Shown: positions 24,685 to 46,992, counted from the stretch's first letter. The stretch is 64,000 nt of DNA from an uncultured virus (IMG/VR IMGVR_UViG_3300028800_000079) (IMGVR_UViG_3300028800_000079), one strand, 5' to 3'. Numbers and translations are program-made. The notes: generated by a model from the letters alone, not told the origin.

Positions 24685-25341
24685 GTGAGCGGCTACGAAC
24701 CCGAACTCGGCCAGATGGTGTTCGGCAACGCGACCAGCGAATACGACCTCGGCAAGTGCGAGACGCTAGTCGCGGATGAGCTGTATGCGCTCTCGGAGGA
24801 ACTTGGGAAGCGCGACCCGGACGCCCAAGTGCACGGCTTCCTCGGCGGCGAGTGGGGGTACGGACAGGACTTCCGCAACGACACGTTCGAGATGCACCCG
24901 TACTGGTGGGGCGACTGTGAGTGCGGCTTCGAGGACGAGGCGCTTGCATGGGAGGAAGCGAACCCGCACACGCCGGAGTGCTGGCAGGAGCGGTGGAGCA
25001 ATGAGCACAACCGGATCAATGCACTGAACCTCGGTTACGACGAGGGCGTCCGTCTGATGGACGAATGGGCTACCGCGAACGGCTGGGACGGCCGCCCCGG
25101 TGTCGCCGTCTTCTGCGACTGCGGCCAGGACGGCCTCTACCAGGCGTGGCGCGAAACCCATAGCCACGATCCGGAGTGCGGCGTTGTCCGCCCGAACTTC
25201 AAGTACGGGCTGGTCGAGGTTCGCTGGTATAAGTACATCGGCTGCGGGATGTCGTGCTCACACGAGCTTGACCGTGCGGCGTGGCGCGTCCTGTTCGCGG
25301 CTTGCCATGCGTCGCTTGTCAATCCCATCACGCCCGCGTGA
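24685..25341 (+). CDS. Hypothetical protein (Cys/His-rich)
   Basis: PYWWGDCECG, PNFKY and WYKYIG; stop within the palindrome at 25328. Confidence 0.65.
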   Translation: MSGYEPELGQMVFGNATSEYDLGKCETLVADELYALSEELGKRDPDAQVHGFLGGEWGYGQDFRNDTFEMHPYWWGDCECGFEDEALAWEEANPHTPECWQERWSNEHNRINALNLGYDEGVRLMDEWATANGWDGRPGVAVFCDCGQDGLYQAWRETHSHDPECGVVRPNFKYGLVEVRWYKYIGCGMSCSHELDRAAWRVLFAACHASLVNPITPA

Positions 25342-25495
25342 TGAAGCATCGTCTCCTCGCGTGGCACCGTGAACCCGGCTTGTGGTGGTTCCGGGTCTAC
25401 GGACGTGGTATCTCCGCGAAGAACATCCAGACGCATCCGCCGTCGTTCAGTGAACGGAACGGGTACGGGCGCGGCTGGCTCGTGCGGAGGCTGAA

Positions 25496-30771: not shown

Positions 30772-31452
30772 GTGACGAGATACACCATCGCTGTGCTCTG
30801 TCCTGTCCTGGCTCGCCCGCATCGGGTGGTGCTGTTGGTGGAGTCGGTGAGGGCCGCGTCGCGGGTGACGGGGTGCCGGACGGTGTTCGTCGCGACGGAG
30901 GGCGACACGGACGAGATCGCGGCGATCCGCCAGGTGGAGGCGGGCGACGTGACGTTGATCGTCGTCCCGTCCGAGGACGAGGGGTACAGCCGCAAGATCA
31001 ACACCGGGTTCGCTGAGACGACGGAGCCGTTCGTGTTCATGGCCGCCGACGACCTCGACTTCCGGCCTGGCTGCTTCGAGCGGATGCTCGCCACCCACTT
31101 GGAGACGGGCGCGTGCGTAGTCGGAACAAACGACGGCGGCCACGCCGGGACCGCGAGCGGCGACCACTCCACCCATTCGCTCGTCTGCCGCGAGTACGGC
31201 GACTGCGGCCTGATCGACGCGCCAGACTCTAGGCTACTCCTGAACCCGACGTATCGGCACTGGTTTTGCGACAACGAGCTAGTCGGTACAGCGAAGCACC
31301 GTCAGACGTACGCGCACGCGAAAGACGCCCTCGTCGTCCACTTGCACCCGAACTGGAAGAAGGCGGACATGGACGCGACCTACGCGAAGGGGCAGTCCAC
31401 TATCGCTGAGGACCGCGCCACGTTCGAGAGCCGGAAGAGGCTGTGGTCGTGA
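30772..31452 (+). CDS. Glycosyltransferase family 2-like
   Basis: IAVLCPV, INTG, FMAADD, HWFCDNE and HLHP. Confidence 0.75.
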   Translation: MTRYTIAVLCPVLARPHRVVLLVESVRAASRVTGCRTVFVATEGDTDEIAAIRQVEAGDVTLIVVPSEDEGYSRKINTGFAETTEPFVFMAADDLDFRPGCFERMLATHLETGACVVGTNDGGHAGTASGDHSTHSLVCREYGDCGLIDAPDSRLLLNPTYRHWFCDNELVGTAKHRQTYAHAKDALVVHLHPNWKKADMDATYAKGQSTIAEDRATFESRKRLWS

Positions 31453-31705: not shown

Positions 31706-33685
31706 GTGGCTCGCTGGGGCTTCGGGCGGCAACCTAGACGCGACACGCGTCCCGTCGTAAGCAACCCCGCGAAGAAGGGGTCGCTGGTCGCGGCGGGGCA
31801 GCGCGTCCACCAGCGCGAAGCGCAAATCTACCGGCGGCTGATCCAGCCGTGGCAGCAGCGCGCCCTCTCCTACTACGACTCGATCGGCGAGATCAAGTAC
31901 GCCGCGAACTATGTCGGGCACGCCATGTCGCTGTTGAACCTGTTTGTCGGCCAGATCGCCGACGACGGCCAGATCGAGCAGACAGACAATCAGGCGGCGG
32001 TTGAGGCGCTCGCCCGCATCCAGGACCCCGGCGGCGGGCGTGGTGTCCGGTACGGGTTGCAGGAGCAGTACGGGAAGCTGATGTTCTTGACGGGGGAGGC
32101 GTACCTGCTCGTCTCGAACGACTCGTTCACGAACCTGGAGCAGTGGGAGATGCTGTCCACGAACGAGCTGCGCGTGATGGACGGGATCATCATGCGCTAC
32201 CGGGCACCGTCCCTGATGATCCAGGACTACCGGGAGGCCCCGGACGAGGACTTCTTCCCGCTCGGCGCCGACGCGGTCGTCTACCGGCTGTGGAAACGCT
32301 CCCCCGTCTTCTCCGCGCTCGCCGACTCGTCCATGACGGGGGTGCTCCTTTTGGCGGAGGAGCTGCTGAAACTCACAGCCGTCGTCCGCGCCCGCGCCAC
32401 CTCCAGGCTCGCCGGGCCGGGCATCGTGTTCATTGACGAGGCGCTCTCCCAGACCCCGTTGGAGCCGACCGGGGACGAGGACCCGTTGAACGACATCCTG
32501 ATGCAGGACTTCATCGAGGCGGCCACCTCCGCGATCGAGAACGAAGGGTCGGCGGCGGCGGTGTCCCCGATGTTCGTCCGCATCCCCGTCCCGGATGGCA
32601 AGAAGATCCAGGACGTGATCTACCACTTGCAGATCACCGACCCGATCCAGCTCTACCCGGAGACGGGCCTGCGGGAGGAGTGCATCCGCCGGATCGCGAC
32701 CGGGCTCGATATTCCGGCGGAGATCCTGACCGGGATGGGCGAGCTGACGCACTGGAACGCGTGGCAGGTGGACGAGTCCACCTGGAAGGCGCACTTGCAG
32801 CCGATGGCGCAACAGCTCGTCAGCGACCTGACGATGGCGTACCTGCGCCCGTACCTGCGCGACCAGAACGTCCCGGATTGGGACACGTTCGTGATCGACT
32901 ACGACGCGTCCGCGATCATCAACCACCCCGACCGTGGTGCAGCAGCCGACGCCGCCTACGACAAGGGCACGTTGAGCGACGAGTCGTACCGGAAGGCGAA
33001 GGGGTTCGATGAGGACGACGCGCCCTCCGAGGAAGAGAAAGACATGTGGCTGGGCGTGAAGGTGCGCGACGCGTCGCTGGCGAAGTACGGGATCCCGTCG
33101 CTGAAGCCGGGCGGGCTGAAACCGGAGGCGGGCGTCGTGGAGATGGGCGACGCGTCCTCGGGAGGCGGCGAAGTCGTCGCACCGAAAACCGTCGCCACTC
33201 CTACTCCTGCGGAGACGGTGAAAGACCAGCCGCCGCAACCCGTGTCGGGGGACGTGCTCGGCTCCGGGTTTGCCGTCGCAGGCGAACTCGCCGTCCTGCG
33301 GGCACGCGAACTCGCGGGGGCAAAGATCCGTAACCAGGCGAAACGCGACCCCGAATCGCTCGCCCTCCTGGAAGGCGTCCGGCACGGCCTCGTCGCGTAT
33401 ACGCTCGGCCGCGACAAGGTGCGGGAACTGTGCCGCGGCATGTCGGACGCGCAGCTCGTGTCCACCAGCGGGGCCGGGTCCGGGGTCGAGTACTTGGTGG
33501 AGGAGGCGCTCCGCCGGTTCGGGGTCACCGACCAGGCGGTGATCAGGTTGATCGTGTCGAACGTGGAGAAGCACGCCGCCCAGACCCTGTACGACGAACG
33601 GCCTCGCCCGCTGCCGGAGCCGCTCCTGAACCGGGTCGCGCAGGAGGCGTCCCGGAACGGCCACAAGACGCAGGCTGAAGCGTGA
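31706..33685 (+). CDS. Portal protein
   Basis: YYDSIGEIKY, GEAYL, IRRIATGLDIPAEILTG and HWNAWQ resemble actinophage portals; first large gene of the head module. Confidence 0.8.
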   Translation: MARWGFGRQPRRDTRPVVSNPAKKGSLVAAGQRVHQREAQIYRRLIQPWQQRALSYYDSIGEIKYAANYVGHAMSLLNLFVGQIADDGQIEQTDNQAAVEALARIQDPGGGRGVRYGLQEQYGKLMFLTGEAYLLVSNDSFTNLEQWEMLSTNELRVMDGIIMRYRAPSLMIQDYREAPDEDFFPLGADAVVYRLWKRSPVFSALADSSMTGVLLLAEELLKLTAVVRARATSRLAGPGIVFIDEALSQTPLEPTGDEDPLNDILMQDFIEAATSAIENEGSAAAVSPMFVRIPVPDGKKIQDVIYHLQITDPIQLYPETGLREECIRRIATGLDIPAEILTGMGELTHWNAWQVDESTWKAHLQPMAQQLVSDLTMAYLRPYLRDQNVPDWDTFVIDYDASAIINHPDRGAAADAAYDKGTLSDESYRKAKGFDEDDAPSEEEKDMWLGVKVRDASLAKYGIPSLKPGGLKPEAGVVEMGDASSGGGEVVAPKTVATPTPAETVKDQPPQPVSGDVLGSGFAVAGELAVLRARELAGAKIRNQAKRDPESLALLEGVRHGLVAYTLGRDKVRELCRGMSDAQLVSTSGAGSGVEYLVEEALRRFGVTDQAVIRLIVSNVEKHAAQTLYDERPRPLPEPLLNRVAQEASRNGHKTQAEA

Positions 33686-34067
33686 CGGACATGACGCCGC
33701 AGCAGCGGATCCGCAACGCGGAACAGGTCGTGCGGGAGCAGCGCGCCGCGCCCGCCAGCCCGCAAGTGTTCACGGTGGACGGCGACATGGATGCGGTCAG
33801 CATGGACGACTACCTTGACGCGGAGTACGAGCTTGTCCGGTTGCAGCAGGCCGTGATGGGTGAAGCATCGGACACCGATTCACTCCCGCGTGACTCTCTA
33901 GGCGAGGTTTAGGGTTGCTCGCGCATCCGGTTCGGCGTAGAGTCCGGGTGGGGACTGCCTCCCCAACGGAGCGGTATCCGACGGCGGTGCCGCTCCACCT
34001 TCCTTTCGCGTCTACCTCTATCCCCCCGGAGGGGTAGACGTTGGCTGAGTACCGTTCGAGCCGGGCG

Positions 34068-35123
34068 ATGACAGCGGAGGCGGTGGCCGCGTCGAAGCCG
34101 AAACCTCCGAAGCCTGTTCCGGTCGCGCCGAGCGCGGAGCACCACAACCGGATCCTCCGGGCGGGCTACAAGCGGGCGGACGACCTGGAGGCCAGGATGG
34201 TTAGGGTGCTCGCACCGATCCTGCGGCGGGCGGGCCGGGACGCGGCGGCGAACTTCACCGCACGCGCAACAAGCCACCTCGCGGCAGCCGGAAAGAAGCC
34301 GCCCCCGTCCGTGACGCCGGAGGAGTTGAAAGCCAGGACGCAGGCCGTCGAGGACGCGAAGGCGAAGCTCCGAACCGCGTTGCATGACGGCTCCGGCGAG
34401 CAGCACGTCGAGGCGGTGAAGCAGGAGTTGCGCGACGCGCAGGCGAACCTGTATCGCGCGTCCGCCCGCAACCCCGTCTGGACCGCCCCCGCCCCTGCCG
34501 AGGTGTTGGACGTGGACGCGCTCGTCCTGTCGTTGCGGACGAAGACGGAGCCCGTCCGGCAGGCGATGGTGCAGGCCGTCGCACGGCAGAGCATCGAACA
34601 GGCCGGGGTCGCGTTCGACGTGTCGAACCCGTACGTGCGTCGTGAAGTCGAGAACACCGCGAGCCAGATCACGCACATCGCGCAGACGACACAGGCGAAC
34701 GTCGCGAAGATCGTGCAGGCCAGCTACGAGCAGGGACTCTCGATCCCGGACACCGCGAAGGCGATCCGTGTCGGGATGGCGGAGCAGTCCATGACGCGGG
34801 CGACGCTGATTGCGCGGACGACGCTTGCGGGCGCAACGAACGGCGGATCGCTCGCCGCGACACAGGCGATTGTTGCGGCTACAGGCGGGACGGCTAGCTA
34901 CGCGAAGACATGGATGACAGCGCCAGGCGCGACGTACCCCCGCCACGAACTCGTAGACGGCCTAGACGGGCAGCAGCAGCCGCTCGACCAGCCGTTCGAT
35001 GTGGACGGGGAGCCGATGATGTATCCGGGTGACCCGAGCGCGTCACCGGAGAACTGCTGCAATTGCCGGTGTACGCTCAGCTATGCGGACGGCACGGAAG
35101 TCTCCGCCGACGATGCAGGCTAG
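34068..35123 (+). CDS. MuF-like minor head protein
   Basis: RATLIART, KTW, RH..DG, PFDVDGEPMMYPGDP and NCRC. Confidence 0.85.
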   Translation: MTAEAVAASKPKPPKPVPVAPSAEHHNRILRAGYKRADDLEARMVRVLAPILRRAGRDAAANFTARATSHLAAAGKKPPPSVTPEELKARTQAVEDAKAKLRTALHDGSGEQHVEAVKQELRDAQANLYRASARNPVWTAPAPAEVLDVDALVLSLRTKTEPVRQAMVQAVARQSIEQAGVAFDVSNPYVRREVENTASQITHIAQTTQANVAKIVQASYEQGLSIPDTAKAIRVGMAEQSMTRATLIARTTLAGATNGGSLAATQAIVAATGGTASYAKTWMTAPGATYPRHELVDGLDGQQQPLDQPFDVDGEPMMYPGDPSASPENCCNCRCTLSYADGTEVSADDAG

Positions 35124-35212
35124 GCCCGCTTCTCCTGCCGCCAGGCGTTCCAGAGCCGGTACGCCGCCCACTCCGTCTCAACCTCGCTGAACCGTCCGCG
35201 CTTGCCACGCGG

Positions 35213-35238
35213 CTCGCGCCCTCCCCGTGGGGTTGAAT
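35213..35238 (+). promoter_or_regulatory. Putative late promoter
   Basis: CTCGCGCCC-N9-GGTTGAAT. Confidence 0.65.
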
Positions 35239-35286
35239 GGGAAACCACATCCACTCGCACCCCCCTGGACAAGGGAGAGGAGAACG

Positions 35287-37965
35287 ATGAACGCGCAGGA
35301 GCGGCGCAGGGCACGGAGGGCGCAGGCACGGGCAACGGAGCGCGCCCGCAAGGTTTCCCAGGAGCAGGCCACCGAACTCGCGGCGCTCGCGCTCGTCGCA
35401 GCCGCGTCGGGGCTGGCGCTCGGGGAGAGGGACGAGAAGTGGGATAGCGGCGCGGCAGTCAAGAGCTACGAGCTGCCCGCAGACGCCGACTGCTTCATGT
35501 GGAAGGACCCGGACGGCGATCCGGCCGTGAAGGGGTCGTACAAGCTGCCGTTCGTGTCGAAGGACGGCGGCAAGCACGCCGTCTGGGGCGCGATCACCGC
35601 TATCGCGGGGGTGTTGCAGGGCGCGCAGGGTGGCGTGGACATCCCGGACGCGGACAAGGCGAAGGTGCGCTCGAAGGTGGAGGGCTACTACCGGGACGCC
35701 GCGAAGAAGTACGGCGACGACAAGATCAAGGCTCCCTGGCTCGCTGACGAAGCCGCCGCAGAGGTGGAGCAGTTCGTCGGGAACAACAACGACACGCCCG
35801 GAGACACCGACGTGTGCGCCGCCTGCGACCATCCCGGCGGGATGCACGCCGGGGAAGCGAACATGGGTGCGTGCTCGGTCGCGGATTGCGACTGTGCCGG
35901 GTACACGTTCGAGTCTGCCGCACAGACGGACGAGTTCGCGGCCGGTGACGAGCCGGTGCTCCCGGACGCGCACAAGCCGCAGTCCAGGATTCCGCGCCGC
36001 CACCCGTCGCCTCGGCTGCCGGACGTGACGAGGGTCCCGACAAGGGACGGGCAGGCCGGGAAGGCGCAGTGGACGGCGACGCTCGCCCCGGAAGGGCGAC
36101 TCACCGACGACGGGCGCGCGTTCGCTCCCGACTCGATCTCGTGGCGTGATCTGCCGTTGACGCTGATGGGGTTGACGGGCACGTCGGCGGAAGGCGGCCA
36201 CGACGGCGCAGAGGTCGCAGGCCGGATCGACCAGATTTGGCGTGAAGGCGGACTGATCAAGGCGTCCGGGATCTTCGACACGTCCGAGTTCGGGCAGGAG
36301 ATCGCGCGCATGGTCGGCGACGGCACCCTGCGCGGCGTCTCGGTGGACCTCGCGATCCACAAGTACGACTTCGGCCCCAAGACCGACTGGTTCAACGCCG
36401 ACGGCGAATGGGCACCCGTCGAGCAGTCCGACGACGACGCCCCCTCCATGATCGACCTGCTGTTCGGCGACCAGGACGAGGACATGATCTTCGTGGTGAC
36501 GGACGCGACGATCGGGATGGCGACCGCGTGCCCGTTCCAGGCGTTCGCGGACGCCACGATCGAACCCGCCTCGTCGCTCGTGGCTGCCCCGCACGACGCG
36601 ATGTGGACGGTGACGCAGCAGGCAGCCTGGACGGTCGTGCTCAAGTTCGACCCGGCGATGCTGCAAGAAATGTCGGCAAGCGGTGATATGCTTGAAGCAT
36701 GTTCCGGCCAGGACCAACTCACTGCACTGCCTGTGGGCGTAAACTCACTAAGAGCAGCCGCTCAGGTCATTGCCGAACTTGCTATGACGCTGCCTGTGCA
36801 AACGGAACTCTCCCTGATCCAGAGTGCAGCGAGTGTGGAAGAACTTTCCCTCGCAAGCGCGGACAACACTACGGAATGCAAGTCTGCCCTGAATGCAAGC
36901 CTGAACGCGATAGAAGACTTGCTCGCGAGCGCTATGCCAATCTCGACCCCGAGAGGAAGAGGGCCTATCTCAGAACAACCGCGGAAGCCCAAAAACGATG
37001 GGCGAAAACGGATCACGGGAGAAAGATCATTCGCGCAAGAGCATTCCGTCGCTACTCCGGGATCGACGTTCGATGGGATGAACTCGAACGACTCATGGAG
37101 CAGCAAGGACATCGCTGTCCCATCTGTCTTGAACCCATCGACTACGAATCTGGGAGAGGCACAGTCAAGAATCCACACATTGACCACCAGCCAGGGACAA
37201 CGACTCTTCGCGGATGGCTCTGTAGTCCGTGCAATCGAGGTCTTGGCTGCTTCGGCGACGATCCTGAACGACTCGAACGAGCAGCAGCTTACGTTCGACG
37301 CTCCGGTATCCCCACCGAAGGAGTGGTTTACCCGCGAGGGCGAAAGCCCGGTCGCCCCGCTAACAGTTAGCGATGAAGGCCGTGTGTCAGGGTACGCGGC
37401 TACGTGGAATCAATGTCACGTCGCTTTCCCTGACCAGTGCGTAACTGCTCCACACTCGAAAACCGACTACGCCTATTACCTCATGGGCGAAGTCGTCTGC
37501 GACGACGGATCGCGCGTCGCTACTGGTACCGTCACTCTCGGTACAGGTCATGCTGGCCCTGGGCTCGGGATGACTGCCGCGACAGCTCACTATGATCACA
37601 CCGGAACGGGTGTTGCAGATGTTGTTGTGGGCGAGGACGAGCACGGGATTTGGGTGGCGGGAGCACTGCGTCCTAGTCTTTCGACAGCAACCGTTCGGGA
37701 ACTCCGCGCCGCGAAATTGTCAGGGGATTGGCGGAATGTGGATGGCAACCTCGAACTGTGCGCCCTCCTGGCGGTGAACGTGCCGGGGTTCCCGATCCCG
37801 CGCCCGCGCGCCTCGATCGAGGCTAGCGGCGGAACAGAGGTGATCGTGTCCCTGACGGCGGCCGGGGTGATGGTCGAGCCGGACGAGTTGCGGGAGCAGA
37901 TGCAGGCGCTCCGGTTGAAGGCTGACGGCGAGTTCGACACGCTCGCCGCGGCTGTGGAGGAGTAG
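35287..37965 (+). CDS. Capsid maturation protease (multidomain) with a ~216-codon in-frame insert
   Basis: APEG..T.DGR, GHDGA...GRID, RGVSVD and C..AFADA; C-terminal domain SGDWR...LAVNVPGFP. Confidence 0.8.
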   Translation: MNAQERRRARRAQARATERARKVSQEQATELAALALVAAASGLALGERDEKWDSGAAVKSYELPADADCFMWKDPDGDPAVKGSYKLPFVSKDGGKHAVWGAITAIAGVLQGAQGGVDIPDADKAKVRSKVEGYYRDAAKKYGDDKIKAPWLADEAAAEVEQFVGNNNDTPGDTDVCAACDHPGGMHAGEANMGACSVADCDCAGYTFESAAQTDEFAAGDEPVLPDAHKPQSRIPRRHPSPRLPDVTRVPTRDGQAGKAQWTATLAPEGRLTDDGRAFAPDSISWRDLPLTLMGLTGTSAEGGHDGAEVAGRIDQIWREGGLIKASGIFDTSEFGQEIARMVGDGTLRGVSVDLAIHKYDFGPKTDWFNADGEWAPVEQSDDDAPSMIDLLFGDQDEDMIFVVTDATIGMATACPFQAFADATIEPASSLVAAPHDAMWTVTQQAAWTVVLKFDPAMLQEMSASGDMLEACSGQDQLTALPVGVNSLRAAAQVIAELAMTLPVQTELSLIQSAASVEELSLASADNTTECKSALNASLNAIEDLLASAMPISTPRGRGPISEQPRKPKNDGRKRITGERSFAQEHSVATPGSTFDGMNSNDSWSSKDIAVPSVLNPSTTNLGEAQSRIHTLTTSQGQRLFADGSVVRAIEVLAASATILNDSNEQQLTFDAPVSPPKEWFTREGESPVAPLTVSDEGRVSGYAATWNQCHVAFPDQCVTAPHSKTDYAYYLMGEVVCDDGSRVATGTVTLGTGHAGPGLGMTAATAHYDHTGTGVADVVVGEDEHGIWVAGALRPSLSTATVRELRAAKLSGDWRNVDGNLELCALLAVNVPGFPIPRPRASIEASGGTEVIVSLTAAGVMVEPDELREQMQALRLKADGEFDTLAAAVEE
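36699..37370 (+). CDS. Endonuclease VII-like HNH endonuclease nested in the -1 frame of the protease
   Basis: QGHRCPIC...HIDH...LRGWLCSPCNRGLGCFGDDPERLERAAAY; N-terminal CxxC repeats; extended -10 TGaTATGCT at 36684-36692. Confidence 0.85.
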   Translation: MFRPGPTHCTACGRKLTKSSRSGHCRTCYDAACANGTLPDPECSECGRTFPRKRGQHYGMQVCPECKPERDRRLARERYANLDPERKRAYLRTTAEAQKRWAKTDHGRKIIRARAFRRYSGIDVRWDELERLMEQQGHRCPICLEPIDYESGRGTVKNPHIDHQPGTTTLRGWLCSPCNRGLGCFGDDPERLERAAAYVRRSGIPTEGVVYPRGRKPGRPANS

Positions 37966-37967
37966 CG

Positions 37968-38981
37968 TTGGGTCACGCCAGCGTTACTCTCGGCAAGAGC
38001 CGCCGCAACGTGCTTGTCGCAGACGCGGAGCCGATCCCTGACTCTGAACTAGAGGTTGAGGGTCACTCCAGCGTGACGGCGGACGCGTCCACCACGGAGA
38101 CGGTGGTGGTGGACGACATCGCCGCGGACGCCCGCCAGGAGCTGCAAATCTGGTGGACGGAGCATCCGGCGGAACGGCAGGAAGAGATCGAGGACTCCGG
38201 CTACGACCCCGTAGACGAGCCGCTCGACTACTGGCCCGTTGAACTGGCCGAGCCTGTCCACGCCGAGATCGCCGCCCGCGTCAACGACTCCGGTGTCCTG
38301 GATCTCGCGGACGTGCTGGAGTGGGAGACGCAGGAGCAGGCCGAGAACGACGCGGACGAGGCGGCACAGTCGCGCGAGTTCGCGGCGCTGCTCCATGACG
38401 CGTCTCTCCCGCTCCCTGATGAGGTTGAGCCGCCCGCCCCTGCTGAAGAAACCGTGTTGGCGGCTTCCGCGTCCGACTCGTCGGCGACGCACGCGACAGC
38501 ACTTGAAGCCCTGGCCTCTATGCACAGGGCTAGCACCGAGGCTGTGACCTCGCTGGTCGCGTCGGCCCCGACGAGTCGGGACGCGGGGACTGAGAACGAG
38601 CTGGCGATGCTCGCGATCGACACGCTCCGCGAGTTCGCGGTCCGGCCCGCACCCGCGCCGCCGCAGATGGGCGACATTCACGTTCACACGCCGCAGCAGG
38701 ACATGACGTTCCGGGTCGAGTCGCCGACGGTGGAACCCCACATTGACGTGCATCTGCCTGAGCAGGCCGCCCCGAACGTGACGGTGAACGTGCCGGAGCA
38801 GGCGGCACCCGACCCGTCGCCTATCGTGGTGAACGTGCAGCCGACGCCCGTCAAGGTCACATCGCCGCCCGTCAAGGTGGACGTGCATATGCCGGAGCAG
38901 CGGCAGGCCGCGAAACGGATCCACGTTGACGTAGACGCGATGGGACACAAGACCTACCGCGTCGAGGAGGAGGACGAGTGA
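37968..38981 (+). CDS. Hypothetical acidic protein with Pro/Val-rich C-terminus
   Basis: PNVTVNVPEQ-type repeats; start uncertain. Confidence 0.6.
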   Translation: MGHASVTLGKSRRNVLVADAEPIPDSELEVEGHSSVTADASTTETVVVDDIAADARQELQIWWTEHPAERQEEIEDSGYDPVDEPLDYWPVELAEPVHAEIAARVNDSGVLDLADVLEWETQEQAENDADEAAQSREFAALLHDASLPLPDEVEPPAPAEETVLAASASDSSATHATALEALASMHRASTEAVTSLVASAPTSRDAGTENELAMLAIDTLREFAVRPAPAPPQMGDIHVHTPQQDMTFRVESPTVEPHIDVHLPEQAAPNVTVNVPEQAAPDPSPIVVNVQPTPVKVTSPPVKVDVHMPEQRQAAKRIHVDVDAMGHKTYRVEEEDE

Positions 38982-39271
38982 CCGACACATGGAACGGTCC
39001 GGTCGCCTACCTGGACGGCTGGCACTGGTCGGTCGTCACCGACGCTGCCGGTGTTGAGTCGCTCGCCGACAAGTTGTACCTCGAAGACGATGGCACCTTC
39101 CGGCTCGCGGTGGACGGTGACGCGTCCTGGCAGGACCGCAAGTTCGTCCGCTACGCGATGATCGTCCCCGAGGACGGGCAGCCGGGCATCTCGGTGTCCG
39201 CCGACGAGCTGGCGTTCGTGACCGAACAGCTCGCGCAGCGCCGCGCTGAACAGAGCGGAGGTGCGTCATGA
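38978..39271 (+). CDS. Hypothetical protein
   Basis: Coupled ORF with GGAGG RBS. Confidence 0.6.
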   Translation: MTDTWNGPVAYLDGWHWSVVTDAAGVESLADKLYLEDDGTFRLAVDGDASWQDRKFVRYAMIVPEDGQPGISVSADELAFVTEQLAQRRAEQSGGAS

Positions 39272-39828: not shown

Positions 39829-41565
39829 GTGGCCCGTCTGATCCAGAACGGGGCGGAACTCGGTTCGGCCACGGCAGGGGTCGAGTGTGATGCTGTGTCG
39901 GGGACCGTGACGGCGCAAACTGTGGTTGTGCGCAGCGGCACCTACGCGTACAAGTTCGCTCCCTCAGCGAGCCTTGCGTGGGGCGAAAACTATTTCGCGG
40001 CCGCGGACGGGACAGGCCCGTTCTATGCGCGCGGCTACTTCTGCTTCACGACGTTCCCTGCCGCGAATGAGCCTCTCCTCTTTTTCCTGGACAGCACGGA
40101 CACGAACCGTCCACGCATCACCTTCGAGTCGTCTACCAACCAGTTTTTCCTGCAACAGTCGGGAGGCACGAAACTCGGCTCGAACAGTGCGACGCTGACA
40201 CTCAACCACTGGTACCGGCTCGAACTCAAACTGGATGCAACGACGAACCCGGCAACTATCGAAGCCCGCTACGTCGATTGCGGCACGAGCGGGACGGACC
40301 CTGGCGGGGCAGGCACCGTGATCGCGTCCGGGAACGACAACGCTGGCGTCCACACCGCGTCGCGGCTGCGTTTCGGCCTCACGACCAACAACAACTCCGG
40401 GGTCCTCTACGCAGACGATCTGGCCGTCAACAGCTCGTCCGGGTCGGCGCAAAACTCGTGGTGCGGGTCGGGCCGGATCATCCATCTACATCCGGCCGCG
40501 CAGGGCGACGCGAACGGGTTCCTCGTCAACATTGGCGGGACAGCAGGGGCCGCGAACAACTACACCAGGGTGAACGAGATACCGCCTGACGACGCGACCT
40601 CCTACAACGCGTCCGCTGTCTTGAACGCGGAGGACTTGTTCCGCTGCGGCGCGTCCGGGATCGGGACCGGCGACACCGTCAACGTCGTCTGTGTGGGGGT
40701 GCGGTTCGCGAACCTTGTAGGAGCGGACGCGACAGCTGCGTTCAAGACCGAGATCGAGAAGGCCGCTTCAGGGACGAAGACGCAGTCCGCCGCGATCATC
40801 CCGAACTCGACCTCGTGGCGGTCGAACAGTGCGACGGGGGCGAGCCTCTACAACCTCGTCACCTATCTCGACCCGGACGGGTCGGCGTGGACGCAAGCCA
40901 CTCTGAATACCGCGCAGATCGGGTATATCGAGACGGTCGCGAACGTGCGCGCGATCGCGGTCACAAACTCGTGGCTCTCGATCGATTACACGCCGACCGA
41001 CGTGTTCGTGGTCGCGCTCGCCGGGGCTGGATCGTTGACGGCGACCGTGACGCCCTATCAGCGGATCACCGCCTCCTTGACTGGGGTGGGGTCGCTGTCT
41101 GCGACCCTAACTCCATACCAGCGGCTCACTGTCGCGCTCGCCGGTACGGGGAGCCTGTCCGCGACCCTGAGCCCCTACCAGCGATTTACGGCAGCCCTCA
41201 CGGGGGCCGGGTCGCTGACCGCCACACTGACCCCGTACCAGCAGATGCAGGTGCAGTTGCAGGGCGCGGGAGCGCTCGCCGCCACGTTGACCCCGTACCA
41301 GCAGATCGTCGCGTCACTCGGCGGCGTCGGCGCACTCACCGCAACTCTCACCCCCTACCAGCAACTGCTCGCGCAACTTGCCGGAGCCGGGATGCTCGCC
41401 GCGTTCGTGCAAACGATCTCGCCTCCGCAACCTGTGACGTTCACGGGAGTTGGTGGGAGTGGCTTCCCTCCGGAAATGCTGCAACGCTTCCTCGACAACC
41501 CGCAGACGCAGCCCGACTGGGATCTCGCAGACATCGAAGCGTTGATCGCGCTCGGCCTTCTCTAA
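39829..41565 (+). CDS. Putative virion fibre or spike protein with 20-aa tandem repeats
   Basis: Lectin-like N-terminus (LNHWYRLELK); repeats LxGxGSLxATLTPYQ. Confidence 0.6.
   Translation: MARLIQNGAELGSATAGVECDAVSGTVTAQTVVVRSGTYAYKFAPSASLAWGENYFAAADGTGPFYARGYFCFTTFPAANEPLLFFLDSTDTNRPRITFESSTNQFFLQQSGGTKLGSNSATLTLNHWYRLELKLDATTNPATIEARYVDCGTSGTDPGGAGTVIASGNDNAGVHTASRLRFGLTTNNNSGVLYADDLAVNSSSGSAQNSWCGSGRIIHLHPAAQGDANGFLVNIGGTAGAANNYTRVNEIPPDDATSYNASAVLNAEDLFRCGASGIGTGDTVNVVCVGVRFANLVGADATAAFKTEIEKAASGTKTQSAAIIPNSTSWRSNSATGASLYNLVTYLDPDGSAWTQATLNTAQIGYIETVANVRAIAVTNSWLSIDYTPTDVFVVALAGAGSLTATVTPYQRITASLTGVGSLSATLTPYQRLTVALAGTGSLSATLSPYQRFTAALTGAGSLTATLTPYQQMQVQLQGAGALAATLTPYQQIVASLGGVGALTATLTPYQQLLAQLAGAGMLAAFVQTISPPQPVTFTGVGGSGFPPEMLQRFLDNPQTQPDWDLADIEALIALGLL
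41008..41410 (+). repeat. About 6.5 copies of a 60-bp coding tandem repeat
   Basis: Unit LAGAGSLTATVTPYQRITAS with synonymous divergence between copies. Confidence 0.85.
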
Positions 41566-41583
41566 CCAGACAGGAGTATCGAA

Positions 41584-42579
41584 ATGAACGTCGACATCGT
41601 CACCGACTACGCCGCCGTCCCGGACGGATCGACCGACAACACGGATGCGCTCAACCAGGCGCTCGTGGACGTGTACGCGGCTGGTGGCGGCGTGATTCGT
41701 GTGCCGCTCCCCGAGCACGACACGGGGCCGCTGTGGACGTTCCGCTGCGACGGCCAGTTGATCGTCCCGGACGACGGCGACCCGTCGCATCCGCGCACGC
41801 GGCCGATCTCGATCAAGTGCGACGTGCCGCAGTTGACCGCTTGGCCCGCGATGGTGACTCCGGAGCCCGATCCGTCGGGGGGCGCGATCCTGGACCTCCG
41901 CTACCAGGGCGCCGCCAAGATCGTGTCGCACGGGATCGGGTGCCTCACCCTCGAAAACCTCGTTCTCGCCCAGTACGGCGATGCGGCCGACACGACGCCG
42001 TTCTTCCTCGGGACGGGGACGACCTCCCGCATCAAGGACACCCGCTTCATCGGGCATCCTGCCAACGTCGGGATGACGTGCGTCCAAGACGCCGTCCAGT
42101 TCGGCGGCACCGAAGACATCGAAGACGACACCGACCTCTCGAAGTTCCAGGGGTACGGCACGATCCTGGAGGGGTGCCAGTTCACGCGGATACGTCGCGC
42201 CGTGTGGTGCAAGGTGGCCGCCAACGGCGTCGTGATCCGCGCCAACCGGATCGCCGCCGACTGCGGCGGCATCACGGCAATCCACGTCTCGGGCAGCGTC
42301 ACGAAACTCGCCTACGCCGTCAAGACGGCCGACAACATCATCGAGATGCGCGGCTACCAGTACGGGATCACCTGGACGAACGCCGCCGAGTGCGCCAGCG
42401 ACAGCGACAAGTTCTTCGACGCCGTCAAGAACAACCCGACACTCGCCTACTACCGCAACAGCGGCCAGGTCGGCGGGATCGCGTCCAACGCCTATTTCAG
42501 CGACGACACCATCCCTGCCCTCTTCCTCCTAAACGGGTCGCGGATGAAGGTCGGCGCGAACGGCGCACTCCCGTCGTGA
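41584..42579 (+). CDS. Pectate-lyase-like beta-helix protein (possible depolymerase)
   Basis: DYAAVPDGSTDNTDALNQAL...GGGVIRVP N-terminus typical of Pectate_lyase_3/GH28-related proteins. Confidence 0.6.
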   Translation: MNVDIVTDYAAVPDGSTDNTDALNQALVDVYAAGGGVIRVPLPEHDTGPLWTFRCDGQLIVPDDGDPSHPRTRPISIKCDVPQLTAWPAMVTPEPDPSGGAILDLRYQGAAKIVSHGIGCLTLENLVLAQYGDAADTTPFFLGTGTTSRIKDTRFIGHPANVGMTCVQDAVQFGGTEDIEDDTDLSKFQGYGTILEGCQFTRIRRAVWCKVAANGVVIRANRIAADCGGITAIHVSGSVTKLAYAVKTADNIIEMRGYQYGITWTNAAECASDSDKFFDAVKNNPTLAYYRNSGQVGGIASNAYFSDDTIPALFLLNGSRMKVGANGALPS

Positions 42580-43274
42580 CGCCGAGCGTGAACGTCTCCG
42601 TCATGGTGCAGGCCCATCCGCGCCGCTCGGAGATGGCGCACGCGCTCGCGGCGGAGGTGGATGGGACGGTGGTGTTCGACCCTGAACCGGACGGGGCACG
42701 CGCGAGCCCGTGGCGCTGCTACCGGCACTGTCTCGCTTCGACGCCGGGGTTCGAGTCGGGGTTCGCCGCAGCCGGAAGCGCCTCCCACGTCTTGGTCTTG
42801 CAGGACGACGCGGCCGTCTGCCACGGCTTCATCGACGTGTTCCATGCCGCCGTCCGAGCGCGCTCGGACCGGGTGCTCGTGTTCTTCGTGTCCGGGATGC
42901 CCGTCGAGCACTCCCGCGCCGTCCTCGAAGCCTGCGCCCGTGACGAGCCGTGGGCCGTCATCGACACCGCCCGCTGGTGCAGCGCGGTCGCGACGTGCTG
43001 GCCCGTCCGCCACGTCCACCCGATGCTCCGGTTCGTGGACGCGCAACGCTGGCCCGAAACGTTCACCGCCGACGACGAGATCATCGGCCGCTACCTCCGC
43101 CACGCGGGCGAACGGCCGCTCGCGTCCGTGCCGTCGCTCGTCCAGCATCCCGACATGGTTCCGAGCTTGGTGGGGCGGAAGGACAGGCAAGGCCAGGATC
43201 CGGGGAGGGTCGCGGCGTGCTTCGCAGACCCCGGCTGCGACCTTAGCCTGATCGACTGGACGCGCGGACCCTGA
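42576..43274 (+). CDS. Glycosyltransferase-like protein
   Basis: MVQAHPRR, HVLVLQDDA, ADD and PSLVQH..PSLVG. Confidence 0.65.
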   Translation: MTPSVNVSVMVQAHPRRSEMAHALAAEVDGTVVFDPEPDGARASPWRCYRHCLASTPGFESGFAAAGSASHVLVLQDDAAVCHGFIDVFHAAVRARSDRVLVFFVSGMPVEHSRAVLEACARDEPWAVIDTARWCSAVATCWPVRHVHPMLRFVDAQRWPETFTADDEIIGRYLRHAGERPLASVPSLVQHPDMVPSLVGRKDRQGQDPGRVAACFADPGCDLSLIDWTRGP

Positions 43275-44421: not shown

Positions 44422-46257
44422 ATGGACGAACCCCTGTACCCCGAGATCCCAGAGGATCTCAGTGCTCTCTCGGAGGACGAACTCGCGTCGCTCCGTGATG
44501 AGCTTGCAGCGTCGATCAAGGAAGTGACGGAGGCCCCGTCCGAGTTCGTCACCACGACGGCGGAGGATCTGGTCGCTGCGACGCGTGCCGCGGTCGAGTC
44601 GTTGGCCGCTGTGCGGGCCGAGCTTGCCGCCCGCGAGACTCCCGAGGAGGAGGAAGAGGGCGACGCTGGCGAGGCGGGCGACGGCGACGACGGCGAGGCT
44701 GCCGCTGAGGCGGAGGCCGTGTCGGAGGAGGCCGCTGCGGAACTCGCGGAGCTGGGCGAGCTTGCGGCGCAGCCCGAGGACGACGAGGAGACGGAAGGCG
44801 AGACGGACGGTGTCCCTGGCGGCAAGGTGATGCCGAACGTGAAGGGCAAGGTTGCCGCGAAGAAGGCGAAGAGTGAGATCGTGGCGGCAGGGTTCCGGAA
44901 CGCGCTTCCCGCGCTGCCGAAGCCGCAGGGTGACCGTGCCCCGCGCGAGTCGCGTCCGGCGGTCCCGACGGTGTCGCTCGTGGCGGGTGCCGGTGCGACC
45001 GACATGCCGCTCGGCTACGAGTTCGGCAGCATGACCGAGGTCGCGAACGCGATGATCAAGCGCCGCTACGGCGGCAACGTCCGGGACGGCGTGGTCGAGA
45101 AGGAAGTGATCGCGCGCGCGGACTGGCGTGACGCCTACCCCGCCGATCGGCGTCTCACGATGGAGACCCTCACCGACGGCGCGCTCGTGGCCGCGGCGAC
45201 CGACCCGAAGGACGTGCGGGCACGGTTCAACCAGCGCAAGCAGGCCCAGATCGAGAACCCGCGCGACATGAGCCTGGTCGCGTCCGGTGGGCTGTGCAAC
45301 CCGGTCACGCCGTACTACCAGCTCCAGATTATCTCCACCCCGATGCGGCCCGTCCAGGCTGCGCTTCCGGCGTTCAACGCCGACCGGGGCGGCATCCGGT
45401 ACATGCCTCCGGCGGGCCTGTCGGCGGTCACGACCGCTGTCGGGATCATCACCGAGGCGGAGGACGCTGCGGGCGGATCGTCCGCAACGAAGACGTGCCA
45501 GACGGTGACGTGCAACGACCTGACCGAAGTGGACGTGGACATCATCTACCACTGCCTCACGTTCGGGAACCTTCAGGCGCGCGCGTTCCCGGAGCAGGTG
45601 ACGCAGTTCAGCGAGACGACGCTCGCGGCCTGGTCGCGGACGGCGGAAGCGAACCTGCTCACCGGGATCGGCACCTCGTCCACCGCGATCACGGCCGGTT
45701 CGCTCGGTTTGGGCGCGTCCGCGTCGCTGTTCAGCCAGATCCTGGCGGCAGCGAACGGGCTTCGCTCCCGCAATCGCATGGATCCGTCCGCGATCCTGCG
45801 GCTGATGATGCCGTTCTGGGCGATCGACCTGATCATCAGCGACGTGATCCGGACGCAGTTCCAGCGCTTCGACACCGACGAGGCGAAGATCGTCGCGATG
45901 TTCCGCGAGTGGGACATCGAGCCGAGCTTCTACCTCGACGGCGCAACCGCGGCCGGGCAGGTGTTCGGCACCCAGTCCGCTGGGGCGCTGCTCCCGTTCC
46001 CGCCCACCGTCGTGTCGTACCTGTTCCCGGAGGGCTCGTTCCTCTACCTCGACGGCGGCGTCCTCGAACTCGGCATCGTGCGCGACTCGGTTCTCAATAC
46101 CACGAACGTATTTCAGTTGTTTGGTGAAGGTTTCGAGGCACCCGCCTTTGTAGGCATCGAATCCCTCGCCCTTACTTCTAGCGTGTGCGATAACGGTAAG
46201 GTTTCGGCTCCCTATGCAACCGATGCCTGCCCCTACTCGTACACAGCGTCAAGTTGA
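44422..46257 (+). CDS. Major capsid protein with an N-terminal scaffold-like region
   Basis: Acidic helical N-terminus; LVASGGLC.P, RGGIRY and LELGIVRDSVLNTTN.FQLF.E resemble actinophage capsid proteins. Confidence 0.85.
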   Translation: MDEPLYPEIPEDLSALSEDELASLRDELAASIKEVTEAPSEFVTTTAEDLVAATRAAVESLAAVRAELAARETPEEEEEGDAGEAGDGDDGEAAAEAEAVSEEAAAELAELGELAAQPEDDEETEGETDGVPGGKVMPNVKGKVAAKKAKSEIVAAGFRNALPALPKPQGDRAPRESRPAVPTVSLVAGAGATDMPLGYEFGSMTEVANAMIKRRYGGNVRDGVVEKEVIARADWRDAYPADRRLTMETLTDGALVAAATDPKDVRARFNQRKQAQIENPRDMSLVASGGLCNPVTPYYQLQIISTPMRPVQAALPAFNADRGGIRYMPPAGLSAVTTAVGIITEAEDAAGGSSATKTCQTVTCNDLTEVDVDIIYHCLTFGNLQARAFPEQVTQFSETTLAAWSRTAEANLLTGIGTSSTAITAGSLGLGASASLFSQILAAANGLRSRNRMDPSAILRLMMPFWAIDLIISDVIRTQFQRFDTDEAKIVAMFREWDIEPSFYLDGATAAGQVFGTQSAGALLPFPPTVVSYLFPEGSFLYLDGGVLELGIVRDSVLNTTNVFQLFGEGFEAPAFVGIESLALTSSVCDNGKVSAPYATDACPYSYTASS

Positions 46258-46258
46258 G

Positions 46259-46855
46259 CTAGCTATACCGACTGTTAGGACTACGGATCAAGGCAACGTG
46301 AGACTTGGAGACACCAAAACGGCGGGCGATCTGGCGGGTACTGCCGGTCGCTCGCCGTATCTCCTCTCTCGTTTCCATGCTGATCTTCATGTGGATACGC
46401 CGATGCACGAGTTGCGTTACTGCCTCCAGATGGTCGGGGTTGCAGCACGCCTTCTGCTCGCAAAGGTGATGCACATGGAGGCCGTCCGGTACCGAGCCGT
46501 TCGCACGCTCGAAGAAGAGAACGTGAGTGTAAGCCTGCTGTCTCTCGCCTTCGATACTGATGCGGCCGTAGCCCGCATGGTCAACGACTCCCACCCAGAT
46601 CCAGCAAGGAGTCTCGTAGCCCGTGTCGTGAACTTCGTAGCGGGGCGTGTGCTTTCGCGCGTGATGCTGTTTGATGAATCGTGTGGGCTGGCCCGCGTAA
46701 AGGCCATTAGCCTTCTGGGTCTTCTGCGCGATAGGAGCGTCACCTTCGCATCCGCATTGGCACTTACCGCTTGGATTGGGCGCTTCCGGGTCGATCCATT
46801 CGGGCCAGTCGCCAGGGCGCTGATGGAAACGCTGGATTCTTGTAGAGTCACCCAT
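46259..46855 (-). CDS. HNH homing endonuclease with C-terminal HTH
   Basis: CQCGC, CWIW, HVHHLCEQKACCNPDHLE and IARRFGVS; AGGAGG RBS before the ATG at 46855. Confidence 0.85.
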   Translation of the reverse strand: MGDSTRIQRFHQRPGDWPEWIDPEAPNPSGKCQCGCEGDAPIAQKTQKANGLYAGQPTRFIKQHHARKHTPRYEVHDTGYETPCWIWVGVVDHAGYGRISIEGERQQAYTHVLFFERANGSVPDGLHVHHLCEQKACCNPDHLEAVTQLVHRRIHMKISMETREEIRRATGSTRQIARRFGVSKSHVALIRSPNSRYS

Positions 46856-46992
46856 GGGGCTACCTCCTGTCGTGGGTCGGTGGCCCCTCGGGGCCGTAGC
46901 GTTCACGCGCTATGGCCCCATTCTTGCTATTCATGCTGGGCGGTAGCCTGGTTCGGGACTGCCGCCCACCCCTCCACTAGCGGGGTGATCGC

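Follow-up and report, generated by a model that had tools for sequence, protein, structure and literature searches.

The capsid maturation protease gene in the 64,000-nucleotide stretch of DNA analyzed here, from an uncultured virus of rhizosphere metagenomes (IMGVR_UViG_3300028800_000079; the whole stretch is called the window), carries an in-frame insertion that encodes an endonuclease VII-type (EndoVII) nuclease in a different reading frame. We put the probability at roughly three in four that this insertion is an intron-less and intein-less homing cassette of the hidden out-of-frame kind known from the ShiLan domain. The insert is a foreign segment of lower GC content and a length divisible by 3, situated in a naturally length-variable linker, and from its sequence we infer homing, nuclease activity, and read-through by ribosomes translating the protease.

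The host gene (35227-37965, + strand) is an open reading frame (ORF) of 912 amino acids from a GTG at 35227 that reads through the insertion, and the same read-through ORF is present in the protein collection as P0003, where it is given as 892 amino acids. Family membership has 2 marks, both present: a match to the PHROG head maturation protease family phrog_18402 (1.6e-48) and a His/Ser pair, His325 and Ser372, that is invariant in 103 of 103 aligned proteins. A tblastn search with the protease matched 877 phage records, and among the matches listed most are annotated as "capsid maturation protease," while blastn of the gene against phages returned only short patches of 70-78% identity. The nearest record, G001 (13.3 kb), gave no match to the protease. 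Since the Pfam search assigned no family and the best Foldseek rows for the protease model, herpesvirus and T4 gp21 proteases, had weak E-values of 0.05-0.5, an HK97/herpesvirus-type protease fold can be assigned only tentatively; at E<=0.001 Foldseek found no match for either the protease or the nuclease model. The linker joining the 2 conserved domains is 232 amino acids long here versus 22-101 (median 44) in 102 homologs.

This extra length is due to an in-frame insertion (36640-37293, + strand) of approximately 648 nt, or 216 codons, that is missing in the close homologs P0004-P0007, P0009, and P0010. When the insert-free relative L034 is compared, DNA homology ends at 36635 and picks up again at 37447, with 811 nt in place of 199 nt, a net lengthening by 612 nt (3 x 204). 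The first-pass annotation, made from the sequence by a model, had described a host frame open over some 216 featureless codons between LKFDPA and LTFDAP, and this description holds: the 648 nt contain no stop codon in the host frame, and the encoded peptide matches no known Pfam family at E<=10. An AF2 model of the protease has pLDDT above 90 in both flanking domains and 29-78 over the insert, the latter range being based on an alignment with just one sequence over the insert, and renders the insert as helices and disorder. The annotation had also suggested that the linker might be removed by capsid-maturation proteolysis, a speculation that nothing in this analysis requires.

Composition and homology both change at the insert. 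GC content is 0.58-0.62 in 37371-37750 versus 0.66-0.75 upstream, and identity to P0004, P0005, and P0007 drops from 0.84-0.87 upstream of the insert to 0.54-0.72 downstream of it, these 3 proteins being 0.82-0.97 alike among themselves in all regions. Because GC and homolog identity both break there, the insert sits at a mosaic junction, and the low-GC, divergent 3' flank in the protease C-terminal domain (37371-37750, + strand) is a candidate co-conversion or recombination tract that would have come in together with the nuclease. An imperfect direct repeat can be read off the sequence, with a 5' copy coding LKFDPAM (36640-36660, + strand) and a 3' copy coding LTFDAPV (37288-37308, + strand) that match at 14 of 21 nt and lie 648 nt (216 codons) apart. 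We regard this repeat as weak since a repeat search of the sequence did not list the pair.

The nested ORF (36699-37370, + strand; 223 amino acids) lies in the third (-1) frame of the host gene, as (36699-35227) mod 3 = 2. It matches Pfam Endonuclease_7 (PF02945) with E=7.2e-16 and 58.3 bits (cut-off 23.6) and endonuclease VII in PHROG (7.9e-22), and its family profile matches Hpy99I (3.8e-14) and T4 endonuclease VII (1.5e-8), so that ORF, frame arithmetic, and Pfam all agree with the nested EndoVII gene first proposed. N-terminal Cys-rich, zinc-ribbon-like modules are followed by a C-terminal beta-beta-alpha-Me nuclease. The Endonuclease_7 domain proper comprises residues 126-200 (37074-37298, + strand) and ends in GDDPERLE..AAY.R; the AF2 model (mean pLDDT 76.7), whose Foldseek matches have weak E-values, places a strand-strand-helix at 160-163, 170-174, and 176-185. 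C140, C143, H163, C178, N179, and G186-E193 are invariant in 11 of 11 relatives, and C175 is kept in at least 90% of them. A four-Cys zinc site (C140, C143, C175, C178) and the catalytic D162-H163 ... N179 are all present, with roles that we take over from T4 endonuclease VII. The second His of the DHDH motif is Pro in the window nuclease and His in 10 of 11 relatives in a MAFFT alignment, and this replacement could impair activity; a two-residue shift of the alignment would place HIDH on DHDH, and strand 1 of the AF2 model ends at H163. The conserved end of the nuclease (AAAYVRR) falls near 37301, and approximately 22 more codons run into host sequence that is conserved among homologs, which bears out the proposed overlap of the nuclease 3' end with the host coding region.

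The start of the nuclease is fixed at the ATG at 36699 by an in-frame TGA (36684-36686) 12 nt upstream. This stop codon forms the first three bases of TGaTATGCT (36684-36692, + strand), an extended -10-like element (TGN + TANNNT) that ends six nt before the ATG. The element is thus where the first-pass annotation placed it, but its reading as a promoter found less backing, as it is a match in sequence and a sigma-70 consensus scan of 35000-38200 returned no promoter. Of the 6 EndoVII relatives with a defined ATG, 5 (window, L010, L020, L017, and L002) have a TANNNT hexamer 6-7 nt upstream of it, a position that fits the mycobacterial start sites given in the accessible text of PMC3898074. No Shine-Dalgarno sequence is evident for the nested nuclease, and the spacing of TANNNT to ATG suggests a leaderless nuclease transcript. 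We also considered whether a -1 frameshift might fuse the N-domain of the protease to the nuclease and rejected this, given the stop 12 nt before the ATG and no slippery heptamer in between.

Two related EndoVII genes are likewise nested, at two sites of a different, MuF-protease gene family. The first, in L010, occupies site A of a MuF-protease fusion gene, with an insert that is common to L010 and the proteins P0129 and P0130 and missing in 5 other homologs; the second, in L020, occupies site B. L010 and L020 are 65% identical at the amino acid level in the nuclease frame versus 44% in the host frame, and their differences at nuclease codon positions 1, 2, and 3 number 50/42/88, a pattern that points to purifying selection on the nuclease frame. 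Other EndoVII relatives (L002, L003, L004, and L017) are free-standing and lie between terminase, portal, capsid, or fibre genes. A search of the protein collection with the window nuclease gave 5 matches, the best being 47-50% identical over 32-39% of the query, and across viral contigs, metagenome contigs, the protein collection, and phage records nothing turned up beyond distant relatives and the same phage (L001/L013/L037). Similarly, tblastn with the L010 nuclease as query brought up no close relative in any cultured phage.

The narrow distribution of the window insert would suit a decaying relic, in which a single past invasion left a nuclease that is now inactive or immobile, the region stays open for the protease only, and the ORF is still intact as the event was recent. 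The insertion is confined to one lineage, being found at 1 of 80 viral loci related to the window protease, the window's own phage, and in 1 of 103 proteins. The insert junctions are spanned by contigs of at least 99% identity not only in the probable source run but also in runs from three other studies, and no joint across the insert, as expected of an empty-site allele, was seen in the contigs of these four runs, although contigs drop rare variants. The Pro in the DHDH motif and the lack of a known close nuclease relative also favor a relic. Against this, the ORF is full-length, with the 4 Cys, D162-H163, and N179 in place and each N-terminal Cys cluster retained; conservation extends to the promoter-like hexamer; and the nuclease frame of the sister family appears to be under purifying selection. 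In addition, the one variant noted in the insert, 36803 C>T in a single low-depth contig, is silent for the nuclease and gives Met in place of Thr in the host frame. On this evidence we consider a relic unlikely.

Over the nuclease ORF there are 0 stop codons in the host frame, 13 in the other sense frame, and 1, 12, and 7 in the antisense frames. How improbable this is depends on the null. In 11 free-standing EndoVII relatives, the equivalent frame has 48 stops in 1958 codons, from which 5.5 would be expected in the host frame here (P(0)=0.004); P(0) is 0.056 when synonymous codons are redrawn according to the codon usage of this phage, and shuffles of the nuclease's own codons give P(0)=0.33-0.74. 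Own-codon shuffles leave an open frame common because the signal sits in the codon composition, and for the window gene alone, under the strictest null, a stop-free host frame is only marginally improbable. The composition itself differs strongly: NTA/NTG codons, which are those able to seed host-frame stops, account for 12 of the 90 T2 codons of the 3 nested EndoVII genes versus 155 of 347 in the 11 free-standing ones (Fisher p=1.2e-8), while purine-ending use in non-T2 codons is similar (0.43-0.46 in nested versus 0.42-0.55 in free-standing genes). Leu codons in the nested nuclease are CTC or CTT in 12 of 12 cases, versus approximately 48% in the phage's genes, and in free-standing EndoVII genes, except L017, the +1 frame has stops at a density of 1.3-3.5 per 100 codons. 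These codon statistics support the view, already taken in the first-pass annotation, that selection keeps the host frame open.

The same data bear on a genes-in-pieces arrangement, in which the cassette splits the protease into an N-domain with a junk tail and a C-domain translated by re-initiation after the nuclease stop, the open frame being incidental. Such re-initiation has sequence in its favor, since a GAAGG (37375-37379) and an in-frame GTG (37384) can be read a few bases past the nuclease TAG (37368-37370), and the open frame is not rare under the own-codon shuffles. The depletion of NTA/NTG codons argues instead that the frame is selected, as does the openness of the host frame in both L010 and L020 despite nucleotide divergence of approximately 33%. 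Because the host frame lacks a stop, no ribosome that initiates at the protease start can avoid entering the C-terminal domain. Split homologs, which would have made the read-through incidental, were never seen: homologs encode the protease as one gene, with both halves spanned by 102 of 102 aligned homologs and the protease match lying in 2 pieces under one annotated feature in 40 of 40 listed tblastn rows. We therefore judge this arrangement to be quite improbable.

No sign of splicing was found in the libraries searched, which are curated collections and define the reach of these negatives. With Rfam, 35000-39000 had no match at E<=1 and the whole window none at the gathering threshold; for L010 and L020 Rfam returned no intron family, a CRISPR repeat being the sole match at E<=1. 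Only the first 59 nt of the insert lie outside the nuclease ORF, which continues beyond the 3' end of the insert, and a ribozyme core would not fit into what remains. At E<=10, Pfam found no Hint or intein domain in the host-frame inserts, the junctions read off the alignment (K|FDPA ... QQLT|FDAP) are not of the form Cys/Ser/Thr ... His-Asn + nucleophile, and the insert model shows helices and disorder where a Hint fold would be rich in beta structure. Removal of the insert by a self-splicing intron or intein of an unrecognized type, before the protein functions, is accordingly very improbable, even though the protease relative P0008 has a LAGLIDADG intein at another site in the gene, actinophage inteins with frame-3 EndoVII-like nucleases are described in the available text of 10.1101/2025.01.02.630785, and flanking repeat-like similarity was, as far as the accessible account goes, once considered an intron hint for ShiLan.

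For the hidden out-of-frame cassette, our preferred reading, we propose the following. Ribosomes translating the protease would read straight through the cassette and produce a full-length protease with approximately 216 extra, largely disordered residues between its domains, and this essential protease would still work without splicing. The nuclease would be made separately, from a TGN-TANNNT promoter inside the host gene that yields a leaderless mRNA beginning at or near the ATG at 36699. It would then cut insert-free protease alleles of co-infecting relatives, and repair from the invaded copy would copy in the cassette together with flanking sequence; such co-conversion of the flank would explain the divergent low-GC tract downstream. 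In an essential gene, the only survivors would be cassettes free of host-frame stops that landed in tolerant linkers, after which selection would keep the frame open.

The window contains a second nested nuclease. An N6/N4 DNA methyltransferase gene (MTase; 1643-3730, + strand; PF01555, 8.3e-28 in two stretches) reads through an HNH_3 ORF in its third frame (2167-2967, + strand; PF13392, 5.6e-11; probable start ATG 2269), over which the MTase frame again has 0 stops. This nuclease shares 38-44% identity with stretches that the phages ShiLan, Mantra, Starcevich, Bipolar, and others have within "DNA methyltransferase" features and, judged by sequence, is a relative of the published ShiLan-domain nucleases. 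A promoter-like TTGACA-17-TACACT (2231-2259, + strand) lies nine nt before its ATG and is the sole such site found in 1500-3900, where shuffles average 0.4. The 2 nested nucleases of the window are thus of different families, Endonuclease_7 and HNH_3, and share a relative frame, as the first-pass annotation had noted; the frame is the same in all 4 nested cases for which DNA is available, namely L010, L020, and the protease and MTase genes of the window. The overprinted homing elements that it had proposed on this basis as a general class do exist as such, though they are already published in what is accessible of PMC11855218 and 10.1101/2025.01.02.630785.

Two antisense HNH genes in the window were also considered as nested in host genes and rejected, since they lie between the genes for the major head protein, phrog_779, and the major tail protein. 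Some free-standing cassettes are spanned by a junk "bridge" ORF that runs from the stop of the upstream gene to the start of the downstream gene. In L017 this is a +1 ORF (2558-3310) over the EndoVII gene (2566-3261), and in the window such ORFs (46214-46996 and 47927-49042, + strand) cover the two antisense HNH genes between capsid and tail genes. It is possible, though we think it doubtful, that homing cassettes in actinophage late operons are generally selected to be "translationally transparent" in the direction of the operon, beyond sparing the host protein. If so, continuous translation would prevent polarity and preserve coupling, and the third-frame rule would follow, since, of the alternative frames, the nuclease +1 frame would cost least to keep open.

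The window protease is a well-supported further example of a known lifestyle, now in an essential gene, and not a new principle. Head proteases are normally indispensable to tailed phages, and this one apparently tolerates approximately 216 junk residues between its domains. The depletion of NTA/NTG codons and the excess of position-3 substitutions together provide a quantitative signature of the lifestyle that could be used in six-frame scans. No copy of the nested nuclease was returned from the protein collection, though the read-through host ORF P0003 is present there; as nested nucleases are invisible to gene callers, the diversity of phage homing endonucleases is probably under-counted. 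Phage engineers may find permissive linkers and a small self-promoted cassette of interest.

The closest known systems are the hidden out-of-frame HNH nucleases in mycobacteriophage DNA methylases (ShiLan domain and Pacc40 gp60) of Arsenault, Gosselin, and Gogarten (Genes 2025, PMC11855218). In the accessible text of that paper, as here, there is an insertion relative to homologs, a host frame without stops, and a third-frame nuclease whose ORF opens a few codons after the insert begins and closes at the 3' edge of the insert; intron and intein signatures are absent, the sequence that follows the insert is similar to its beginning, the nuclease is proposed to be expressed from a leaderless transcript, and the in-frame peptide is predicted to form a poorly ordered loop. 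The differences are that the nuclease there is HNH_3 versus Endonuclease_7 in the window protease, and that the methylase is stressed as dispensable, whereas a normally indispensable virion-morphogenesis protease is invaded here. The lifestyle was described in 2025 only for dispensable methylases, and the word "protease" has 0 occurrences in PMC11855218; the window adds a normally indispensable gene and a second nuclease family. Three things are new relative to the ShiLan paper: the signature of codon avoidance, TANNNT-N6/7-ATG as a conserved element, and a mosaic break that coincides with the insert.

A second comparison is with the EndoVII-like homing endonuclease in frame 3 of actinophage inteins reported by Gosselin, Arsenault, and Gogarten (bioRxiv 10.1101/2025.01.02.630785), the main text of which, supplements aside, has 0 occurrences of "protease." As far as that text goes, nuclease family, relative frame, actinophage hosts, and structural targets ("minor capsid") are alike. 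A functional intein splices out there, in contrast to the window insert, for which no Hint domain or splice-junction residues were found and which therefore most likely stays in the protein.

Free-standing EndoVII homing genes that lie between phage structural genes, and T4 endonuclease VII and Hpy99I, whose structures are solved, have a sequence family and fold in common with the window nuclease. The free-standing homing genes differ in occupying their own intergenic space and in having +1-frame stops (L017 excepted). T4 endonuclease VII is a junction resolvase and not a homing enzyme. Finally, Aeromonas phage Aeh1, in work attributed to Gibb and Edgell in 2007, is said to carry mobE, an intron-less homing endonuclease gene lodged in the essential nrdA, which is reportedly split by it into two separately translated polypeptides ("genes in pieces"). 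Like mobE, the window cassette would be a homing endonuclease gene that has no intron and occupies an essential gene of a phage. It differs in its effect on the host, for the host gene is broken in Aeh1, whereas the host frame of the window protease is continuous.

The capsid maturation (prohead) protease gene of the window (35227-37965, + strand; 912 aa) contains an inner ORF of 223 aa (36699-37370, + strand) whose product hits Pfam Endonuclease_7 (E=7.2e-16; 58.3 bits, cut-off 23.6) as well as PHROG endonuclease VII families. Each of its codons begins at the third position of a host codon. Along this stretch no stop interrupts the host frame, against 13 in the other sense frame and 1, 12, and 7 in the antisense frames. 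The nested feature is real. The first-pass annotation had described an endonuclease VII-type ORF in a protease gene that stays open across it, a TGaTATGCT element six nt 5' of the nuclease ATG, and a nuclease tail overlapping conserved host sequence; all of this was borne out wherever it could be checked.

The gene belongs to a high-GC (~0.66), actinophage-like genome segment that also encodes a terminase (6352-7848), a portal-like protein (31706-33685), a MuF-like protein (34041-35123), a major head protein (44422-46257), and a major tail protein (49049-49702). Between the terminase and portal-like genes lies a sugar-modification block (12728-26338 and 30772-31452) with several family-2 glycosyltransferases, a DegT aminotransferase, an NAD epimerase/dehydratase, a hexapeptide transferase, a PIG-L deacetylase, a GFO/IDH oxidoreductase, and an FkbM methyltransferase; the ORF at 40815-43274 also has a glucosyltransferase-like end. 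An RNA-repair-like set on the - strand (52301-54389) comprises a PNKP phosphatase domain, an AAA_33 kinase-like ORF, and a T4-type RNA ligase.

Homologs place the nuclease in an in-frame insert of the protease. The protease product matched 877 of 50,697 phage records by tblastn, and all 40 matches listed consist of two pieces (query ~280-480 and 700-908) under one annotated feature, mostly 'capsid maturation protease'. In the closest relatives (P0004-P0007; 708-759 aa, best segment 82-87% identical), a short variable linker joins '...WTVTLK' to '...PVxPPxEWF', and the window protein is ~216 residues longer there. Across 103 aligned proteins this linker measures 232 aa in the window and 22-101 aa (median 44) in the other 102. 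DNA homology to an insert-free relative, L034, ends at 36635 and restarts at 37447, with 811 nt of the window standing for 199 nt of L034 (net +612 nt, 204 codons). His325 and Ser372, 5' of the insert, are invariant in 103/103 proteins, and many columns 3' of it are invariant too. Both halves of the protease are thus important, and production of the second would require the putative read-through translation; the whole read-through ORF is recorded in the protein collection (P0003, 892 aa). An AF2 model of residues 280-912 (103-row alignment) gives pLDDT mostly >90 for the conserved domains and 29-78 for the insert, which is helical in places and lacks structure over a long stretch. This would fit a tolerated floppy linker, weakly so since a single sequence informs that part of the alignment. 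In a close homolog, P0008, a LAGLIDADG_3 intein interrupts another conserved site, just ahead of TACPFQAF, so the protease family is a target of at least 2 kinds of mobile element.

The insert is also of foreign origin and lies at a mosaic junction. GC drops at ~36640 from 0.66-0.75 to 0.54-0.58 and recovers only near 37750, well past the nuclease. Identity to P0004, P0005, and P0007 is 0.84-0.87 upstream of the insert versus 0.54-0.72 downstream, while these three are 0.82-0.97 identical to one another in all regions, so the cassette and a recombination break coincide exactly. Such a break is expected from homing in which a divergent donor co-converted one side, and equally from ordinary mosaic recombination that took the cassette with it. 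In a rhizosphere metagenome run that is possibly the source, contigs span both insert junctions, contigs from three other studies cross one junction each at >=99% identity, and an IMG/VR contig is 99.97% identical over 6267 nt. The lone variant within the insert, 36803 C>T, leaves the nuclease protein unchanged and gives Thr->Met in the host frame; it rests on a single low-depth contig and may be an error. Four clustered differences from the window (36570-36576), ~65 nt 5' of the insert, occur in the run X1 contig that crosses the insert.

Whether the open host frame exceeds chance depends on the null model. When the nuclease's own codons are shuffled, P(0 stops) is 0.33-0.74, so the signal resides in the choice of codons. 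Synonymous resampling with phage codon usage gives P(0)=0.056 for the protease case and 0.011 for the HNH_3 ORF (2167-2967) nested in the window's DNA methyltransferase gene. Free-standing EndoVII relatives (n=11) have 48 stops in 1958 codons of the equivalent frame, a rate that predicts 5.5 stops in the nested ORF (P(0)=0.004), and the window's other four nuclease genes have 4, 6, 10, and 5. Only NTA or NTG nuclease codons can precede a host-frame stop, and the host frame is free of stops because these are scarce in nested genes: they make up 12/90 codons with T at position 2 in three nested EndoVII genes versus 155/347 in free-standing ones (Fisher p=1.2e-8). Outside that class, purine-ending codons are used alike in both groups. 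All 12 leucine codons of the window nuclease are CTC or CTT.

Similar arrangements occur elsewhere. The metagenome locus L010 has an EndoVII gene (3081-3632) whose product is 32% identical to that of the window (E=1e-15). Its host is an ORF labelled 'capsid maturation protease and MuF-like fusion', which is open across the nuclease and contains it in its third frame. The same ~200-aa insert occurs at the same place, after VSVDLDDVDL, in P0129 and P0130 and is absent from five other homologs. The viral locus L020 has an EndoVII 65% identical to that of L010; here too the host ORF is open and the nuclease occupies its third frame, and the site is a different linker ~280 residues further along; the other 13 viral loci of its MuF-protease family have no nested EndoVII. 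The 180 nucleotide differences between L010 and L020 fall 50/42/88 at nuclease codon positions 1/2/3, and identity is 65% in the nuclease frame versus 44% in the host frame. In the nuclease frame it is the protein that is conserved, in the host frame solely the absence of stops. The relative frame is identical in 4/4 nested cases with DNA. L020 and L021 carry closely related MuF-protease genes. Their identity is 88% before and 98.8% after the L020 nuclease site, where the two have unrelated segments (751 and 487 nt), a further mosaic break at a cassette.

At the nested nuclease (35000-38200), an E. coli-type promoter scan found no promoter. A TANNNT hexamer lies 6-7 nt 5' of the ATG in 5/6 EndoVII relatives with a defined ATG: TATGCT preceded by TGa in the window, TAGACT in L010, TAACCT preceded by TGg in L020, and TAGAAT in the free-standing genes of L017 and L002. 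In M. tuberculosis, 73% of primary start sites have TANNNT centred 7-12 bp upstream, a -35 consensus is lacking, and TGN increases promoter activity (PMC3898074). The arrangement fits a putative leaderless mRNA beginning at the ATG, with the hexamer as a candidate promoter element. The methyltransferase-nested HNH has a full TTGACA-17-TACACT site 9 nt 5' of its probable start, ATG 2269.

Other gene structures were rejected. The first-pass annotation had named homologs with separately encoded halves, and hence incidental read-through, as evidence against its reading; the phage records listed and the aligned proteins hold one-piece homologs, never split ones. An intein was dismissed on the junction residues, which are not intein-like, and on the host-frame insert peptide, which matches no Pfam family, Hint domains included, even at E<=10. 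An intron was dismissed because Rfam has no match at E<=1 in 35000-39000 (and none at gathering score across the window) and because the nuclease ORF begins 59 nt into the insert and runs past its end, which leaves no space for a ribozyme core. A protease-nuclease frameshift fusion is impossible upstream of the TGA at 36684-36686, which shuts the nuclease frame 12 nt 5' of its ATG.

The nuclease has 11 relatives with, in common, four Cys, a strand-1 D-H, Asn179, and a C-terminal GDDPERLE..AAY.R motif, and their profile matches the solved structures of Hpy99I (3.8e-14) and T4 endonuclease VII (1.5e-8). The AF2 model (mean pLDDT 76.7) has a strand-strand-helix core at 160-185, and its best Foldseek rows are the same two enzymes, at only E=0.007-0.08. 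As a caution, in a MAFFT alignment the second His of the family's DHDH motif is Pro in the window nuclease; a two-residue register shift would restore it.

The window and other loci carry further nuclease genes of note. Two HNH_3 homing-endonuclease genes on the - strand (46259-46906 and 47942-49021), situated between the major head protein, phrog_779, and major tail protein genes, contain no TTA, CTA, or TCA codon. They are fully spanned by family-less + strand ORFs (46214-46996 and 47927-49042) that abut or overlap the flanking + genes. These ORFs may act as translational 'bridges' or be shadow ORFs that arose by chance in a genome of high GC. Another HNH_3 gene (51428-52129, - strand), located in a low-GC island, has 10 stops in the +1 frame and no long opposite-strand ORF over it. 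In L017, the free-standing EndoVII gene (2566-3261), flanked by a Gp80-like gene and a gene for 698 aa, is stop-free in the +1 frame; the +1 ORF (2558-3310) begins 10 nt past the upstream stop and ends at the downstream ATG (ATGA overlap), and NTA/NTG use is 5/32, low as in nested genes. The free-standing EndoVII genes of L002 and L003 have no bridging ORF. The 520-aa ORF at 54545-56107 (+ strand) may be a composite or fused nuclease gene. Its N-terminal part is high in GC, residues 270-436 match PHROG HNH families, residues 433-514 match Endonuclease_7 within a low-GC tail, and its stop overlaps the start of the following gene.

A full-text literature search, with subscription journals mostly outside its coverage, found no such element in a capsid protease. 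The closest known systems are the ShiLan domain and the Pacc40 insertion. Both are HNH genes placed out of frame within methylases of mycobacteriophages, and the window's methyltransferase insert is related to these nucleases. The paper on them describes a host frame without stops and neither intron nor intein; its authors suggest that expression is leaderless and that the in-frame peptide resembles a loop, and they point out that the methylase is dispensable (PMC11855218). The insert of the window's methyltransferase gene (1643-3730) lies between duplicated motif copies, KPAHEPV 5' and TSAHEPV 3', which parallels the likeness of insert flanks described for ShiLan (PMC11855218). Preprints report EndoVII-like nucleases in intein frame 3 (10.1101/2025.01.02.630785) and a dnaX intein with an out-of-frame nuclease (10.64898/2026.09.14.751524). 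The ShiLan HNH ('third frame') and the intein-borne EndoVII ('frame 3') have the same relative frame as the nested cases here. The protease feature is best explained as a hidden homing cassette of the ShiLan type, with an EndoVII nuclease and in an essential protease gene, for which read-through translation, nuclease activity, promoter use, and homing are inferred. The hidden out-of-frame lifestyle has already been described in the known systems; what the protease/EndoVII example adds to it is quantitative evidence.
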